Source of the DNA: a virus
Lineage: Duplodnaviria > Heunggongvirae > Uroviricota > Caudoviricetes
Length of the DNA: 29,035 nucleotides
IMG/VR virus record: IMGVR_UViG_2671180727_000026
Strand: one strand, 5' to 3'
Shown piece after piece: positions 12,924 to 24,435 of the stretch (position 1 is its first letter; each line of letters opens with the position of its first letter). The notes beneath the pieces were generated by a model. It was not told the DNA's origin. It searched no databases and saw nothing but the letters and a program-made list of their open reading frames with translations. The translations under genes were made by a program, and so were the position numbers.

Positions 12924-13353
12924 TTAAGCTGTGTGACGAAGTAACCACTCTTAACAGCATAACCAATTTTTTACGTACGTAAACCACTAAATGATATTTG
13001 CGAGAATGCTACCGAGTATTGAAAACACCACTACAAATACATAAGCAAATCTTAACAAATAACCAACAAATAATTTCCAGCGTTATTTTTAGCCAATTTA
13101 AATTGAACCTTCAAATTATAGAGCACTTATAAATAACAGCCATTAATATAAATTGGCTAATAGATTTATTTTTATTCAGCCAAGAGCCATGAATAGGATT
13201 CGATAGAAAAAAGTTCAGATAAAAATAGAGATCTACTTCACAAATTAAACGAGAAACCAAAACTTACATCTTGAAATAATCACATTGATTAGATGAATAT
13301 TTATCGCGCAGTGACATCATTTTTTAATAATAGTTCAAAAAAAAGGGCTCACG

Positions 13354-14436
13354 ATGAAAAAATTAACAGTGGCAATTTCTGCTGTAGCTGCATCAGTACT
13401 GATGGCGATGTCTGCTCAGGCAGCTGAAATTTATAATAAAGACAGTAACAAGCTGGATCTGTACGGGAAAGTTAATGCTAAGCACTACTTCTCCTCTAAT
13501 GATGCAGATGATGGTGATACTACTTATGCCCGTCTTGGCTTCAAAGGTGAAACCCAAATCAACGATCAACTGACTGGTTTCGGTCAGTGGGAATATGAAT
13601 TCAAAGGCAACCGCGCTGAATCTCAAGGTTCCTCCAAAGATAAAACCCGTCTTGCCTTCGCTGGCCTGAAATTCGGTGACTACGGCTCCATCGATTATGG
13701 CCGTAACTACGGTGTAGCATACGATATTGGTGCATGGACCGACGTTCTGCCAGAATTCGGTGGCGATACCTGGACCCAAACAGATGTATTCATGACTGGT
13801 CGCACCACAGGTGTTGCAACTTATCGTAACAACGACTTCTTTGGTCTAGTTGATGGCCTGAACTTTGCAGCTCAGTATCAGGGCAAAAATGACCGAAATG
13901 AAGTAACTGAAGCTAATGGCGATGGTTTCGGTTTCTCAACTACTTATGAGTATGAAGGATTCGGCGTGGGTGCAACCTATGCTAAATCTGATCGCACTAA
14001 TAATCAGGTTATCTACGGTAACAACGGTCTGAATGCTTCTGGTCAAAATGCTGAAGTATGGGCAGCTGGTCTGAAATATGATGCGAACAACATCTATCTG
14101 GCCACCACCTATTCTGAAACCCAGAACATGACTGTTTTTGGTAATAACCATATTGCCAACAAAGCACAAAACTTCGAAGCTGTTGCACAATATCAGTTCG
14201 ACTTCGGCCTGCGTCCATCCGTTGCTTACCTGCATTCTAAAGGAAAAGACTTGGGTGTTTGGGGTGATCAGGACCTGGTTGAATATGTTGATGTAGGTGC
14301 AACCTATTACTTCAACAAAAATATGTCCACTTTTGTTGACTACAAAATCAACCTGATTGATAAGAGCGATTTCACGAAAGCATCTGGCGTTGCTACCGAT
14401 GATATCGTTGCTGTAGGTATGGTTTACCAGTTCTAA
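13354..14436 (+). CDS. nmpC: OmpC/OmpF/PhoE-family outer-membrane porin, prophage-encoded (NmpC/Lc-like)
   Basis: 360 aa; signal peptide [23 protein letters not shown]; [17 protein letters not shown]... and C-terminal ...VAVGMVYQF are the classic general-porin N and C termini; sits between Q and the lysis genes in opposite orientation, as in DLP12. Confidence 0.95.
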
Positions 14437-15880: not shown

Positions 15881-16043
15881 GATTCCTCCTTGCTGCCAGT
15901 CGCAACCATTTTTTATCAACCAGGCTAGCGGTATATCCGAGCAGTGTTGGTATTTCGGATGGCTTCAGCTCAGGCTTACGCTTACGACGATTTGATACTC
16001 TGTAGATGTGTCCGTTCATGACACGAATAAGCGGTGTAGCCAT
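15873..16043 (-). CDS. ninE: NinE-family protein
   Basis: [56 protein letters not shown] resembles DLP12 NinE (56 aa). Confidence 0.8.
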   Translation of the reverse strand: MATPLIRVMNGHIYRVSNRRKRKPELKPSEIPTLLGYTASLVDKKWLRLAARRNHG

Positions 16044-16498
16044 TACGCCTCCTGCTTGTCGCGGAGCAGCTGGAACTCGCAGCTCTGCGGAATAGTCAGG
16101 TGGCAGCCAATATTCACCGCCCAAGCTTCAACCTTACACAGGAAGATATACATCTCTCCGGTATCAAGATCGGAGGTATGGCGTAACGACTGGATAGCGG
16201 TGATCTCACCGGTTACGACATCAACCAGGTCTTTGGTTTCATAACCGAGATATGTGTGTTTGAGAGCATCTTTTACCCAAGCTGGAGTGGCGAACGTTTT
16301 ACCACTGCTGATGAGGTATTCACTGATTTCGCTGTACCACATGTGGCTGAGTGCATTCTGGGAAAGACTGCGTTTCTCACGCCACGGTTTAAGCACCATG
16401 CGAAAGCATTTTCCGTCCTCCAGATAAGGCTGGATCTGCTGGCCGATAGCGGTGAAGTTGCCGCGATGTAGTTTGATGCCGTCTTGTGGGAGGTTCAC
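16043..16498 (-). CDS. ybcN: NinB/YbcN-family recombination (DNA-binding) protein
   Basis: 151 aa [62 protein letters not shown]... resembles DLP12 YbcN; first gene of the ybcN-ninE-ybcO-rusA block. Confidence 0.85.
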
Positions 16499-16685
16499 GC
16501 TTCACCTCCGTAGAGGTAAAACGCAGAATACAAAAAATCGCAGGTGCATTTCTGCATCTGTGACGGGAGAAGTGAGTTTGGATTGTATGTGCGCATAAAC
16601 GTCCCCGTTTAGCGCAGAAGTCACCGGAGTTGTTCAGGCTCCGATGACATGATTATGGCGGGTTGATTATGGAAAATCAATCAAG

Positions 16686-17195
16686 CTATGTTTCATCGGC
16701 GAGGTCATCATCTGTGACAATCATGAGGTTAAAGAATGAAATAATGTTTAACCACTGCGAGTAAATATCGCTCGTCATGCTGGTTAGCTCCTCTCCGTGA
16801 AAGAAGGCATCAGGCCCAACCTCATAGTTGAGCTCTTCAAAAAGCTCCATGTTTAATTGGCTAATAAAGAATTGCTTCAGACCTTTCATTGCATCCTGAT
16901 TGTTGGTATCTGAGTAATTTATTATGCTCCCCATTGCCATGTTCAAACATCGAACAATATTGGCTGCGTCATGAAAGCTCCAGTCAGCCCCTTTCTTTCC
17001 TTTTGAGTATGAATTCGCTCTCTCAGCGCAAGCTTTTAATGTCTCGTACAAATACTGCTTTCCTTGCAACTGCAAAGCTTTTTCGGATGTGGCCCTGCTA
17101 GCTTCTGAGGATCGCCATGCTAAATAAGTTGCTACCGCAGATGCGATAGCTGCAATCGCAGAAACTGCATCTATACCGTTATCCCAACCAGACAT
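16686..17195 (-). CDS. hypothetical membrane-anchored protein (169 aa), nin-region moron
   Basis: ATG preceded by GAGGGGG; N-terminal hydrophobic helix (AVSAIAAIASAVATYLAW); acidic C-terminus; AT-rich relative to neighbours; own putative -10 and a terminator hairpin immediately upstream. No family recognised. Confidence 0.6.
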   Translation of the reverse strand: MSGWDNGIDAVSAIAAIASAVATYLAWRSSEASRATSEKALQLQGKQYLYETLKACAERANSYSKGKKGADWSFHDAANIVRCLNMAMGSIINYSDTNNQDAMKGLKQFFISQLNMELFEELNYEVGPDAFFHGEELTSMTSDIYSQWLNIISFFNLMIVTDDDLADET

Positions 17196-17198
17196 AAA

Positions 17199-17225
17199 AA
17201 CCCCCTCGATTATTTGAGGGGATTA
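17199..17225 (-). terminator. terminator-like hairpin between the 73-aa gene and the 169-aa moron gene
   Basis: Minus strand reads CCCCTC-aaataatc-GAGGGG followed by GTTTTTATG; preceded by TATAAT; the stem overlaps the likely SD of the downstream gene. Confidence 0.45.
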
Positions 17226-17244
17226 TACCTTCAAAGTTTCCGCG

Positions 17245-17466
17245 CTACCCATTCATAACTAAAGCTTTTGCTTTCCAATGAGAAAGCGCGCTATGTTCGC
17301 TAGAACCTGTTTCGACTATATGGCGCCCCCAGGAATCTCCCCATGCCCTCCACGTTGACTTGCCGGTTTGGACTACTGTGACAACATACTCTTTGCCGTC
17401 GATGTTAACTTCATGCTGCACTGGTGATTGTGATTTCATTTTCAAACCTCTGCTTATCGTTGACAT
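17245..17466 (-). CDS. hypothetical small protein (73 aa)
   Basis: ORF in nin-region gene chain, followed by a terminator hairpin; no family recognised. Confidence 0.5.
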   Translation of the reverse strand: MSTISRGLKMKSQSPVQHEVNIDGKEYVVTVVQTGKSTWRAWGDSWGRHIVETGSSEHSALSHWKAKALVMNG

Positions 17467-17490
17467 CGCAATTATGCTGTCACGACATAA

Positions 17491-18297
17491 TCACTTCGCC
17501 TCCTGCTGCGGTGCTGCTGCGATCATGGCCTTCCATTGGTGGTCTGGGCTCCATAATCTACCGCCATCTTCACACTCTTCCTGCGCCTGATGGTACGCCT
17601 CACGCATTTCTGGAGTTGGCTCCTTAGGAACCAGCACCCAACCATCCGGAATCACCGGAGAGTTGCTGACGGGCGACTCGGAAATTTTTGGCGAAGAATC
17701 TAGGGCTGGCGCGGTCTGCATGGTGGTGGGCGACTCGGCTTTTTCGGCACCCTGAAGCATGGCGTCGCGGCATCCGTCATACGCTTCTTTCATAGCATCA
17801 CGCACCCATCCGACAGGTTTCTGCTCAGTCAACTCACACCATTTCTCGAATGTGGGCACAGATACCGGAACTGGCGGTGCTGCATAAAGCGCCTGACAAC
17901 TCCAGCCAGACCAGTGAGCACCCTCCGCTCTCTCATCATCTTCAGGGCGAACAAGCGTGACTTCGCTCGGGTGTTTCCTGTGTGACCACAGCCAGGCTAC
18001 GGTTTCGGCATTGGCTGGCTCTGGCGGGGCGGAGTAAAAATACTCATCCTCAATCCCATCAACGGGCTTTGAGAAGCCGATAAAATCACCATAATGCCAA
18101 GGATAGGGGCCGTATGGCTCAGAGGTCACACGACGCCACCGGTGAATGGCAGGCTCCGCTTCGAGCGATGCCAGCGCGATACGCAGTGCCGCCAGCGTGT
18201 TGCTGTCGCCTTCGTCCAGACCGAACGGGATTTCATCTCTGGCTGCTTCCATGTCGGCAATTTTCTGCTGCAGCCATTGTTTGGTAATAGTGCTCAT
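17491..18297 (-). CDS. hypothetical phage protein (268 aa), Trp-rich and acidic
   Basis: Long ORF with ATGA overlap to the upstream gene; internally repetitive W/EAY-containing segments; no catalytic motif recognised. Confidence 0.65.
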   Translation of the reverse strand: MSTITKQWLQQKIADMEAARDEIPFGLDEGDSNTLAALRIALASLEAEPAIHRWRRVTSEPYGPYPWHYGDFIGFSKPVDGIEDEYFYSAPPEPANAETVAWLWSHRKHPSEVTLVRPEDDERAEGAHWSGWSCQALYAAPPVPVSVPTFEKWCELTEQKPVGWVRDAMKEAYDGCRDAMLQGAEKAESPTTMQTAPALDSSPKISESPVSNSPVIPDGWVLVPKEPTPEMREAYHQAQEECEDGGRLWSPDHQWKAMIAAAPQQEAK

Positions 18298-21131: not shown

Positions 21132-21671
21132 TCATATTGCCCCCAGCATGGTGGTCACCATCGCCATTAATGGACCAGCCAGATCCGGGTCCACACGAAA
21201 CATCGACACAATACCTTCACTCATTTCCTTCAGTTTCTGGTGGCGTGGTGCGTTGAGAATGACAGCCTGTTTTGCCTCACTGAGTTCCTTTTCCATTTCA
21301 GCCAACCGAGTCATGAAGCTATCCTGCTCAACCAGGTAACCGCGATATTCCAGCGGTAGTACCGCCAGAATTGCCGGGGTCAGTTCACGCACGTTATTTC
21401 GGTATTTTTCAGAATCGAATTTGTTATCGAGGAAGCGGAACAGCTTCTGGCGTGCACGGCTGACATCATCAGGGAAATCGATGGTGCCGTCGCCCTGCTC
21501 CCGATACTCATTCACAATGAGTGCGGCAACGACATCCTGATTATCTACAGCCGACCAGGCGCGGACGGCATCACGGATTTTTTCGTGGCCTGGAGCTTGT
21601 TTTGTTTGAGAACGATTTATCACCGCAGTCGGAATAAATCCGCTAGTCTGTTGGTATGTAAGTGGTTGCAT
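21132..21671 (-). CDS. hypothetical regulatory protein in the cII position (179 aa), possibly YdaT-like
   Basis: Occupies the slot between cro and O but is about twice the size of lambda CII; stop abuts the O region. YdaT-family assignment is a guess from context (downstream of a YdaS/Cro-like gene). Confidence 0.55.
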   Translation of the reverse strand: MQPLTYQQTSGFIPTAVINRSQTKQAPGHEKIRDAVRAWSAVDNQDVVAALIVNEYREQGDGTIDFPDDVSRARQKLFRFLDNKFDSEKYRNNVRELTPAILAVLPLEYRGYLVEQDSFMTRLAEMEKELSEAKQAVILNAPRHQKLKEMSEGIVSMFRVDPDLAGPLMAMVTTMLGAI

Positions 21672-22994: not shown

Positions 22995-23375
22995 ATGAGA
23001 AAAATCCTAATCGCTGCCATGATGGCATCTGTATTGGCTGGGTGTGCTTCTTCAGGCAACCAGCAACTCAAAAATGAAACTGAAATTAGTGTCCAGTCTA
23101 AACTTCAGGAAGGTAAAACAACCAAGAATGAGGTTAAATCTTACTTTGGTTCTCCTGATGCTGTTTCATATACTGACAGTGGAAACGAGATCTGGAAGTA
23201 CGCCTTTGCAAAAGTAAAAGTTAATGGCACCACTTTTATTCCATTCTATGGATTATTCCATAATGGAACGAACGGTACGAAAAAAGAACTTACTATTCTT
23301 TTTAACGATGACACGATTAAGAAATACACAATGTCAGAAACCCAAATAAACTCGAAATCAGGTTGGGCTGACTGA
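22995..23375 (+). CDS. lipoprotein moron (126 aa), possibly SmpA/OmlA (BamE)-like
   Basis: Signal peptide with lipobox (VLAGCASS); AT-rich; own upstream AT-rich region containing TATAAT; terminator immediately downstream; segment NEVKSYFGSPDAVSYTDSGNEIWKYAF resembles the BamE-family core. Confidence 0.75.
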   Translation: MRKILIAAMMASVLAGCASSGNQQLKNETEISVQSKLQEGKTTKNEVKSYFGSPDAVSYTDSGNEIWKYAFAKVKVNGTTFIPFYGLFHNGTNGTKKELTILFNDDTIKKYTMSETQINSKSGWAD

Positions 23376-23383
23376 TAATCATA

Positions 23384-23410
23384 CCCGGCAACCGCGCCGG
23401 GTTTTCTTTT
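23384..23410 (+). terminator. rho-independent terminator after the lipoprotein gene
   Basis: CCCGGC-aaccgc-GCCGGG followed by TTTTCTTTT, 9 nt after the stop codon. Confidence 0.65.
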
Positions 23411-23537
23411 CCTCCCCCTCATAACTCATACCGTCCAAAAAACCACCACACCTCACTTCAGTTATCGCTATGCGATGCAAGTCACAAAATAAATCCATCC
23501 TAAATACAACCAGTTATATTTAAAACAACCGATAAAA

Positions 23538-23578
23538 CAACTTTTGTTGTTGACGATAAAACAACTATAGTTTTAAAT
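23538..23578 (+). promoter_or_regulatory. pL-like early-left promoter with overlapping operator palindromes
   Basis: TTGACG (23550-23555), 17 nt, TTAAAT (23573-23578), directed toward gam-bet-exo; overlapped by the perfect palindromes CAACTTTTGTTG (23538-23549) and AACTATAGTT (23562-23571). Confidence 0.55.
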
Positions 23579-23771
23579 AAATTCATCGCAACGACACAAC
23601 GATACGGTAACCACCTGTTTCACCGTTGCGATGACCGCTTAGATCCGCAGCTTGAATTTCAGCAGGCTTCGGGGAGTGCGAGGGATGAAACGGACGCGTG
23701 AACGTCGGTGTGACCAGCTGAAATCAACTCAACATTTCATACCTTAGTCGCTTCAACGAGGCGGCTTAGTT

Positions 23772-24062
23772 ATGACAACCGGCGGCCATCCACCGCCTGA
23801 ATACGCGCAGAAGTCTTTATATGTTCAGCAGCCCAGCTTACGGGCAGGAGTTTTTATGGTTCATCAACATTACGGAACGCAGACCGTTAATCGAGGTGCG
23901 GTCATGCCAGGAATGCTGGTCAAACACAAAGATGGTACCTGGACTGCATCAGCTAATTTACGCGGACGGCTTTATCTGCATCGCGGCATCGAGCGCACTT
24001 ATACCCGTGATTTGCTCGTGGAAGTTTTTCTCGACGGACGCGGTAACGGCCTGAATCACTAA
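23772..24062 (+). CDS. hypothetical protein (96 aa; alternative shorter start possible) in the kil/cIII position
   Basis: ORF between the pL-like promoter and gam; not similar to lambda N, cIII or Kil as I recall them. Coding status uncertain. Confidence 0.4.
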   Translation: MTTGGHPPPEYAQKSLYVQQPSLRAGVFMVHQHYGTQTVNRGAVMPGMLVKHKDGTWTASANLRGRLYLHRGIERTYTRDLLVEVFLDGRGNGLNH

Positions 24063-24138
24063 CCCCCCTTTCCTGTTTTCCTAATCAGCCTGGCATTTCG
24101 CGGGCGATATTTTCACAGCCATTTTCAGGAGTTCAGCC

Positions 24139-24435
24139 ATGAACGCTTATTACATTCAGGATCGTCTTGAGGCTCAGAGCTGGGCGCGTCACTACCAGCA
24201 GATCGCCCGTGAAGAGAAAGAGGCAGAACTGGCAGACGACATGGAAAAAGGCCTGCCCCAGCATTTGTTTGAATCGCTCTGCATCGATCATTTACAACGC
24301 TGCGGGGCCAGCAAAAAAGCCATTACCCGTGCATTTGATGACGATGTTGAGTTTCAGGAGCGCATGGCAGAACACATCCGGTACATGGTTGAAACCATTG
24401 CTCACCATCAGGTTGATATTGATTCAGAGGTATAA
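24139..24435 (+). CDS. gam: Gam (RecBCD inhibitor), short GamS-type form
   Basis: 98 aa [98 protein letters not shown] matches lambda GamS; the in-frame upstream extension is interrupted by a stop codon. Confidence 0.9.

Follow-up and report, generated by a model that had tools for sequence, protein, structure and literature searches.

A shared terminator-type hairpin with an overlapping TATAAT hexamer precedes an accessory gene for a predicted membrane-anchored protein in a lambdoid prophage

The IMG/VR virus record IMGVR_UViG_2671180727_000026, considered here over its whole length of 29,035 nucleotides (nt; hereafter the window), is a lambdoid prophage in reverse orientation whose early and nin genes are read off the minus strand. 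From high to low coordinates, this strand carries a cro-like gene, a YdaT-domain gene, O- and P-type replication genes and ren, followed by several small ead/Ea22-like open reading frames (ORFs), an ORF of 268 amino acids (aa), a 73-aa ORF and the 169-aa ORF that is the subject of this analysis. Next come orf33/ylcH, ybcN, ninE, ybcO, rusA, ylcG and a PF06530 Q antiterminator gene, with a porin gene on the opposite strand and the lysis and packaging genes beyond Q. The slot of the 169-aa gene is thus the interval between the replication/ead block and the ylcH-ybcN-ninE-ybcO-rusA-Q block, an interval that in many related phages is occupied by a homologue of DNA polymerase III theta; no theta gene is present in the window. 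Directly before the ATG of the 169-aa ORF (17195-17193) lies a minus-strand element of 35 nt, referred to below as the head, that is comprised of a TATAAT hexamer, a hairpin and a run of T residues. The main weight of the findings falls on this head and on a neighbouring covarying hairpin rather than on the gene itself. The head is a widely shared junction element of lambdoid phages that is not private to the 169-aa gene.

The initial annotation of this locus had placed TATAAT, hairpin, U-tract and ATG in this order, which is confirmed with its coordinates off by at most one base, and it had rightly reported the 73-aa ORF upstream (Table 1). The hairpin alone folds at -13.7 kcal/mol and displays all of the sequence features of an intrinsic terminator: its stem is GC-rich and exceeds the minimum of 5 bp, its loop falls within the range of 3-8 nt, and a U-tract directly follows the stem. 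Judged by sequence, hairpin and U-tract are built like an intrinsic terminator, and they occupy the site that corresponds to tR2 of lambda. The GAGGGGG of the 3' arm, 5-6 nt before the ATG, is the sole Shine-Dalgarno (SD) candidate, and the hairpin therefore overlaps the SD with its 3' arm, again as the initial annotation had it. Folding predicts a probability of at most 0.015 that this SD is unpaired on a read-through RNA, compared to 0.04-0.34 on an RNA that starts in the loop.

Table 1. Features of the window named in the text; positions refer to the 29,035-nt stretch.
Feature	Position	Strand	Remarks
169-aa ORF (WP_000017329.1, 'hypothetical protein')	16686..17195	-	ATG start, stop codon TAG 16688-16686; RefSeq annotation in E. 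coli S51
Ala/Ser-rich hydrophobic helix of the 169-aa protein	17115..17174	-	residues 8-27; predicted N-out/C-in anchor
Acidic C-terminal tail VTDDDLADET	16689..16718	-	family motif T-D-[ED]-D-L-x-D at the C-terminus
TATAAT	17227..17222	-	perfect -10-like hexamer; last three bases form the outer stem pairs
Core 5' arm CCCCTC	17221-17216	-	
Loop AAATAATC	17215-17208	-	
Core 3' arm GAGGGG	17207-17202	-	followed by G at 17201
T5 tract	17200..17196	-	terminator U-tract and SD-to-ATG spacer at once
Hairpin AAUCCCCUC-AAAUAAUC-GAGGGGGUU	17224..17199	-	terminator scan: 9-bp stem (5 G-C), loop of 8, T-run
73-aa ORF	17245..17466	-	its transcript would end at the hairpin
Conserved right junction	16620..16680	-	promoter-like TTGATT-17-CATAAT at 16680-16652, plus hairpin at 16648-16620
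Right-junction hairpin GTCATCGGAG-CCTGAACAA-CTCCGGTGAC	16648-16620	-	no U-tract, no Rfam match
orf33/ylcH small ORF	16495..16596	-	S51 annotation; phage 82 orf33
Weak terminator-like hairpin with T6	16556-16539	-	inside ylcH, about 130 nt downstream, just before the ybcN start
ybcN	16043-16498	-	follows ylcH
360-aa general porin ORF	13354-14436	+	region 13000-14436, just downstream of Q
YdaT_toxin-domain protein gene	21132-21671	-	cII position, downstream of a cro-like helix-turn-helix gene
126-aa ORF	22995-23375	+	directly after a cI-type repressor gene

The window taken by itself gives these signals little prominence. The head occurs in one copy, neither a lone TATAAT nor a lone hairpin is significant, a 12-mer with at most two mismatches is found twice where 1.7 occurrences are expected, and the hairpin region has a z-score of -1.1 relative to shuffled sequences. 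No Rfam family reaches its gathering score in the window, with only noise at E-values of up to 5 in the interval 16400-17400, and literature searches on the accession, on the 12-mer of the element and on the terminators of phage HK639 returned nothing relevant. Despite these weak within-window statistics, comparative data across related sequences place the upstream signals far beyond chance. In 37 loci collected through the protein rather than through the DNA, a TATA(A/C)T, a CCCCTC-type hairpin and a T-run precede the start codon, in 19 sequence variants and at least 8 upstream contexts. Over the 15 distinct variants, 131 of the 135 stem cells are paired, as counted by a register-aware script, the MAFFT alignment of the element having misregistered several of the 3' arms. 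The changes include compensatory ones, from A-U to C-G at pair 2 (TATAAT to TATACT together with ATT to AGT) and from C-G to U-A at pair 7 by way of a U-G intermediate, while several others are C-to-U wobbles and one locus (L019) has gained an inserted G-C pair in the stem. The loops diverge freely and the stem, the TATAAT and the T-run are kept; a T5 tract is conserved in most variants and degenerate in three (L005, L037 and L019). Between the window and one of these three (L005), synonymous sites of the gene are saturated (dS 1.9, where dS is synonymous divergence), yet GTATAATCCCCTC (13/13) and GAGGGG (6/6) are identical. The element is thus under selection for pairing, in keeping with the terminator-type hairpin originally described.

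The possibility that the ORF is not a gene, or that the motifs upstream of it arose by chance, would draw on the z-score and the chance-level 12-mer count given above. It has been disproved by the conservation of the element among related sequences, by a ratio of nonsynonymous to synonymous divergence (dN/dS) of 0.10-0.15, by the match to PHROG 1779 and by the dozens of full-length homologues described below, and its probability is put at next to nothing.

The TATAAT hexamer behaves as an integral part of this unit. A search for the hairpin followed by N, T5 and ATGTC, in which TATAAT was not specified, returned 64 occurrences, 57 of which are preceded by TATAAT, in 26 upstream contexts. As a control, generic CCCCTC..GAGGGGNTTTTT terminators from unrelated viral contigs carry TATAAT in at most 2 of 134 cases and are flanked instead by A-runs of the AAAAA type. 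The unpaired TAT is invariant in 15 of the 15 variants derived from the family. By these comparisons, TATAAT is a conserved and integral component of the element.

The breadth of sharing becomes apparent when the DNA pattern is used as the query. The pattern TATAATCCCCTC-N5-10-GAGGGG matches at least 120 IMG/VR contigs, and the ORFs that start 5-9 nt after its stem belong to at least seven unrelated families. Among the matches listed (loci L102-L221), the commonest occupant behind the head is a homologue of DNA polymerase III theta of about 85 aa (HolE/Hot-like; PF06440, E = 6.5e-36), with 45 cases, followed by a 60-aa protein, usually with theta behind it (phrog_16632; 29), the 169-aa family (PHROG 1779; 15), a TonB_C-like exported protein (8), DUF1643 (3), a 192-aa membrane protein with no Pfam or PHROGs match (3), and a small lipoprotein and others with one case each. 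Theta is often separated from the head by additional, inserted genes, and one contig (L183) carries a 169-aa family member followed by a remnant of the theta C-terminus. The autonomous cassette that the initial annotation had attributed to the 169-aa gene is not borne out, as the element heads at least seven unrelated genes, lies in the tR2 position and is annotated as a terminator in HK639.

The cassettes also resemble one another just past the head. Nearly all of them begin ATG TC(N), and the start of the 169-aa protein in the window, MSGW... (ATG TCT G.. TGG), resembles the theta start MS(D/Q/K)W..., which suggests an in-frame swap within the first codons whereby the 169-aa gene replaced theta. 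These shared first codons point to replacement rather than to an added 'more on' gene. The more distant 169-aa members have a different start and a GGAG of their own after the U-tract, and masking of the SD was accordingly rejected as a trait of the whole family. The translational gating proposed in the initial annotation is to this extent upheld in part: the SD is indeed paired in the stem, but the pairing is a property of the shared element, and distant family members carry a separate SD.

Both edges of the slot are sharp. At the left edge, the similarity among homologues that have unlike upstream genes begins only with TATAAT. At the right edge, about 2650 other E. coli genomes become homologous from 16680-16692, which is the position of the stop codon. 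The 73-aa ORF accompanies the 169-aa gene in E. coli (25 genomes) and has no match in family profile searches; as other homologues have different upstream genes, it lies outside the cassette as defined at the level of the family. In E. coli S51, the same prophage region lacks 566 bp (window 17385-17950), and the 268-aa ORF is thereby joined to the region of the 73-aa ORF. This deletion shows the 268-aa and 73-aa ORFs to be dispensable, and, being the only difference, it is uninformative on the left boundary of the slot.

The 169-aa ORF is a true coding gene of the accessory type, and it is mobile among the early regions of temperate Enterobacteriaceae phages. It matches PHROG 1779 over its full length (residues 3-167 against positions 2-169 of the 169-position profile, E = 2.5e-77), a family without annotated function, and this membership names the protein but does not explain it. 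The family is small, with 29 clusters at 90% identity among 5.8 billion proteins and 36 representatives at 50% identity among 1.84 billion (1.84e9), nearly all of 150-180 aa. Homologues are 44-100% identical and are found in two GenBank coliphages and 85 IMG/VR contigs as well as in bacterial genomes, the identifiable sources being without exception Enterobacteriaceae or their (pro)phages (E. coli, Enterobacter, Citrobacter, Kluyvera, Phytobacter, Serratia and Scandinavium). The low pairwise dN/dS values against homologues, over dS of up to 1.9, indicate that the gene is under purifying selection. The initial annotation had made its case depend on conservation of the ORF in related prophages, and PHROG 1779 and the dN/dS values provide it.

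In composition and distribution the gene stands apart from its neighbours. The GC content across the ORF is 0.43-0.44 compared to 0.49-0.58 in the flanking nin and ead genes, as the description of it as more AT-rich had implied, and the exact gene is present in 26 of 5426 complete E. coli genomes; strains with the identical region include SF-468, NCTC9112 and QDFD216. Homologues in other lambdoid phages occupy the same nin-side slot, while those of Serratia prophages and of a distant E. coli-type relative lie on the PL/int side, and in another prophage type a distant member directly overlaps the end of a theta gene (L345, 3756-4519). In all of the contexts seen, the gene is read in the direction of the early operon. 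Its neighbours vary in every one of these contexts, with no conserved partner gene among them; the 62-aa ORFs that follow the Serratia homologue and that of one locus (L013) were considered as partners and rejected, as they are unrelated.

The closest known counterparts of the head are lambdoid terminators. The tR2 of lambda is an intrinsic terminator that lies between ren and ninB and gives way to N antitermination. Like the head, it follows the replication/ren-side genes in the early rightward operon and immediately precedes the first nin gene, and it too is a GC-rich hairpin with a T-run, placed a few bases ahead of the start codon that follows. It differs in that its sequence is unrelated, it lacks a TATAAT and its SD (GGGGGAGAGGG) follows the T-run instead of lying in the stem; unlike tR2, moreover, the element described here is near-identical across many phages and many different downstream genes. 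In HK639, an annotated terminator (HM208537, 41560-41586) is the same element, ctTATAATCCCCTCAAATAACCGAGGGGGTTTTATG, with 94.7% identity over 38 nt and in the same slot, where it heads an unannotated 60-aa ORF and then a theta gene (locus L341, 2501-2960) rather than a 169-aa gene. The HK639 annotation covers termination only, with neither a promoter nor an overlap with a ribosome-binding site. As a terminator, then, the element is already annotated in HK639 and is the local equivalent of tR2.

How the gene behind this terminator is expressed is the question on which the interpretations diverge. The one favoured here, tentatively and at a little under an even chance, is a composite in which the sole SD lies in the 3' arm of a tR2-type terminator that is overlapped by a promoter consisting of a -10 hexamer only, ahead of a gene for which an exclusion or defence role is inferred. 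Transcription reading through from the early rightward operon would stop at the hairpin unless phage antitermination were active, and transcripts that did pass it would carry a masked ribosome site. The TATAAT abutting the stem would serve as a weak -10-only sigma-70 promoter, with its start site about 7 nt downstream of the -10 at the first A of the loop. An mRNA born there would lack the 5' arm, and so could not form the terminator and would expose the SD. The outcome would be low, insulated and repressor-independent expression in the lysogen.

The alternative closest in weight, a serious possibility that we consider somewhat doubtful, is that the 169-aa gene belongs to the usual delayed-early class and lacks a promoter of its own, that the hairpin is simply the tR2 equivalent and that transcription of the gene occurs only by antiterminated early transcription in lytic growth. 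TATAAT would then owe its conservation to recent common descent and to being an A-rich 5' flank, or a stem extension, of a once-bidirectional terminator, and ribosomes would reach the SD through breathing of the hairpin or standby binding. As a -10 hexamer, TATAAT is perfect, including the A at position 2 and the T at position 6, and the invariance of its unpaired TAT, with exact TATAAT in 26 contexts, is poorly accounted for by a delayed-early gene when generic terminators with the same stem prefer AAAAA-type flanks. A sole SD locked in a stem of this stability on read-through RNA would likewise be odd for so many cassettes if there were no other mRNA. Family members with other upstream elements have, at the same distance, promoter-like sequences of their own, TTGnnn-16/17-(GATATT or AATCAT) about 30 nt before the start (TTGnnn-17-GATATT among them), with the -10 in a hairpin loop.

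Several observations, by contrast, weigh against the composite and in favour of a delayed-early gene. At 16-18 bp from the hexamer the window has no -35 of at least 4/6, TGGGTA (3/6) coming closest, and the bases just before the hexamer are AGG rather than the TGn of an extended -10; nor is a -35 enriched elsewhere, as 7 of 39 upstream context groups reach 4/6, which is about the chance rate. A GC-rich discriminator such as CCCCTC is unfavourable for the stability of the open complex. The last three nt of TATAAT lie in the stem and covary, AAT/ACT with ATT/AGT, and the hexamer can alternatively be taken for one half of a palindromic arm of 12 bp, as bidirectional copies pair TATAAT with ATTATA. 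The lambda precedent, with tR2 directly before ninB, the terminator-only annotation in HK639 and the constant co-orientation of the gene with the early operon are all in line with delayed-early transcription. A terminator scan finds no intrinsic terminator between the 169-aa stop codon and ylcH that would separate the gene from the nin genes, and with no terminator directly downstream a promoter at TATAAT would read toward ybcN...Q unless it were stopped in ylcH. Hence of the promoter in the initial annotation, the conservation and integral position of TATAAT stand (57/64), whereas a -35 or an extended -10 is lacking here and in the other contexts; the probability that TATAAT acts as a promoter is judged to be not quite even. 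Should the promoter prove unreal, what remains is an unremarkable accessory gene behind a local tR2 equivalent.

The palindromic copies are also of interest in themselves. They have the form TATAATCCCCTC-loop-GAGGGGATTATA, match on both strands and are found in six IMG/VR loci (L110, L127, L163, L212, L213 and L219). Their left flank contains sequence (..gcagcctgacc) that is also present beside unidirectional cassette heads. A bidirectional terminator of this kind may have given rise to the head.

A further reading places regulation second and takes the head to be mainly a recombination linker, a short patch of homology for the exchange of cassettes, with the right junction as a second patch. 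This reading, which is compatible with both the promoter and the delayed-early interpretations, has a precedent in the promoter-early stem-loops (PeSLs) of T4-type phages, each combining a sigma-70 promoter, a stem-loop terminator with G/C runs, an SD and an ATG (Arbiol et al. 2010; PMC2839356). PeSLs lie directly upstream of ORFans and are repeated at mosaic boundaries, and in one class the stem-loop sits just downstream of the -10; they have clear -35 boxes in strong promoters and AT-rich upstream regions, number dozens per genome in lytic phages, have recombination mini-circles as a further hallmark and have been tested experimentally (PMC2839356). Like a PeSL, the head recurs as one unit directly upstream of unrelated accessory ORFs at mosaic boundaries. 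Unlike PeSLs, it is present in one copy per prophage, has no conserved -35, belongs to temperate lambdoid phages and is known from sequence only. A linker would account well for the recurrence of one head before at least seven unrelated genes, for the mosaic breakpoints, which fall at TATAAT to the left and coincide with the stop codon to the right, for the first codons shared among cassettes, for the genes inserted between head and theta and for the theta remnant behind a family member. The divergence of the loops, while stem, TATAAT and T-run are kept with compensatory changes, argues instead for selection on structure or signal rather than on identity, and recombination intermediates are invisible in sequence data. 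As the main function of the head, a linker is regarded as quite improbable.

Whether the gene is a moron, as the initial annotation had called it, depends on which features of that class are considered. The classical moron of Juhala and Hendrix has a promoter upstream and a terminator downstream and is inserted between genes that are adjacent elsewhere (PMC3594210). The 169-aa gene resembles morons in being a single accessory gene of deviating GC content and sporadic distribution (26 of 5426 genomes, with the right flank in about 2650), with sharp boundaries at TATAAT and the stop codon, a putative -10 of its own and a small predicted membrane protein as its product. It departs from them in that its terminator is upstream and shared, none lies directly downstream, and the gene replaces another occupant of the slot. 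Composition and distribution thus support the term; as to organization, the promoter of its own is doubtful and the terminator-like site downstream is the weak one inside ylcH. Taken as a whole, the initial observation is confirmed and its interpretation is partly supported; the 169-aa gene is real, an AT-richer accessory gene that spreads horizontally, and its product is probably anchored in the membrane.

The protein itself is as it had been described, with an N-terminal hydrophobic helix and an acidic tail (VTDDDLADET). The most hydrophobic 19-mer spans residues 8-26, IDAVSAIAAIASAVATYLA, with a Kyte-Doolittle (KD) mean of 1.74, and most full-length relatives have KD values of 1.5-2.5. The N-flank of the segment is acidic and free of Lys and Arg and the C-flank has three such residues, a pattern kept in nearly all members (0-1 and 2-6 Lys/Arg, respectively), from which the positive-inside rule predicts an N-out/C-in topology. 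Against a transmembrane anchor, the segment is only moderately hydrophobic, with a borderline sum of +4.3 on the Hessa scale. In one relative (P0056), the domain is fused behind extra hydrophobic segments. The protein has a predicted isoelectric point of 4.45; in its tail, T161, D164, L165 and D167 are invariant or nearly so in close members, and D.DL.D is kept in most distant members. The AlphaFold2 (AF2) model is all-alpha, with a mean predicted local distance difference test score (pLDDT) of 69, core blocks at 70-91 and the helix at residues 8-31 at low pLDDT. Of the checks that the initial annotation had proposed, topology prediction points to a probable membrane anchor.

The remote-homology search proposed alongside it provided PHROG 1779 and nothing that names a function. 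Pfam, NCBIfam and PADLOC searches with the 169-aa protein returned no match, Pfam searches with 21 diverse family members returned scattered noise only, a PDB sequence profile search returned nothing at E < 1, and no defence family of PADLOC-DB 2.0 matched at E up to 1. Fold searches of PDB and BFVD with the AF2 model gave generic helical matches only. The top Foldseek PDB rows suggested a HEPN toxin, a candidate that was rejected given E-values of at least 0.5, TM-scores of 0.26-0.37 and a conserved (R/K)AN motif with no Rx4-6H in the alignment. The recurrent adjacency to theta led to consideration of QLNMELF as a beta-clamp-binding motif, which was also rejected, as it has one residue more than QLxLF, lies in a predicted core helix and does not keep its F in distant members.

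A function is therefore not readable from homology, and an exclusion or defence role is a reasonable guess. The protein may insert with a short periplasmic N-terminus, a single Ala/Ser-rich transmembrane helix and a cytoplasmic helical domain whose terminal acidic tail could dock a partner; it would then most likely be an inner-membrane exclusion, defence or host-modulating factor expressed from the prophage. HK97 gene 15 encodes an inner-membrane superinfection-exclusion protein, and gp15 shows that such proteins can block DNA entry (PMC3594210). No sequence or fold similarity to gp15/YebO, SieA/B, RexB or Imm is seen, and the likeness consists in being a small prophage-encoded protein predicted for the inner membrane. 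The role in lysogenic conversion or exclusion suggested in the initial annotation was pure inference and finds neither a PADLOC nor a fold match. As an uncharacterised, Enterobacteriaceae-restricted family of predicted membrane-anchored prophage proteins, the 169-aa family would reasonably be included in a screen for exclusion or defence.

If the composite reading were true, a single 35-nt signal would insulate a cassette, supply it with a low constitutive promoter and tie its translation to the origin of the transcript. Many unrelated prophage accessory genes would then reuse the same signal, which would explain how cargo can be plugged into the early operon without disturbing it, and TATAATCCCCTC-N5-10-GAGGGG-T-run-ATG would provide a sequence handle for lysogen-expressed cargo, including candidate defence genes. 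A bolder extension, which is considered unlikely, envisions an integron-like exchange slot in lambdoid phages with the 35-nt head as its left border and a '-10 + covarying hairpin' as its right border. Cassettes (theta, DUF1643, lipoproteins, membrane proteins and the 169-aa gene) would be swapped inside the head, and expression would be set by the birthplace of the RNA, with promoter-born RNA translatable and read-through RNA terminated or masked at its ribosome site. The 169-aa protein would then be a new inner-membrane exclusion or abortive-infection factor whose acidic tail binds a phage or host partner.

The right junction invoked here is conserved in its own right. Its hairpin keeps a 9-nt loop, CCUGA(A/G)CAA, above stems that covary extensively, over 56 variants from about 200 lambdoid loci, and the phage 82 record places a putative -35, a -10 and a 'possible regulator-binding site' at this junction. 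It looks like an undescribed structured RNA, or a protein-binding palindrome, at the start of the nin transcript. Further downstream, the weak terminator-like site inside ylcH is conserved in PhiR26_1 and PhiR5_1 and could keep transcripts that are not antiterminated from reaching the nin genes and Q.

Elsewhere in the window, several features may be of use to those studying this prophage. In the interval from the repressor to the recombination genes (23400-24140, plus strand), no N-type antiterminator ORF of at least 50 aa is recognisable, and a stretch of about 350 bp at 23422-23772 is free of ORFs. N might be small or unusual in this phage, or antitermination might be RNA-based (put-like), as it is in HK022 and HK639; Rfam gives no match. 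The YdaT_toxin-domain protein (PF06254, E = 4.3e-30) is placed as in Rac-type immunity regions. The porin (PF00267, E = 3.6e-152), whose gene is preceded by a very AT-rich stretch (GC 0.28-0.32), is an nmpC/ompD-type moron like that of DLP12. The 126-aa ORF has a lipoprotein-like signal (..LAGC) and a weak BamE-domain match (E = 1.6e-4, below the Pfam cut-off), and may represent lysogen-expressed cargo in the rex position.

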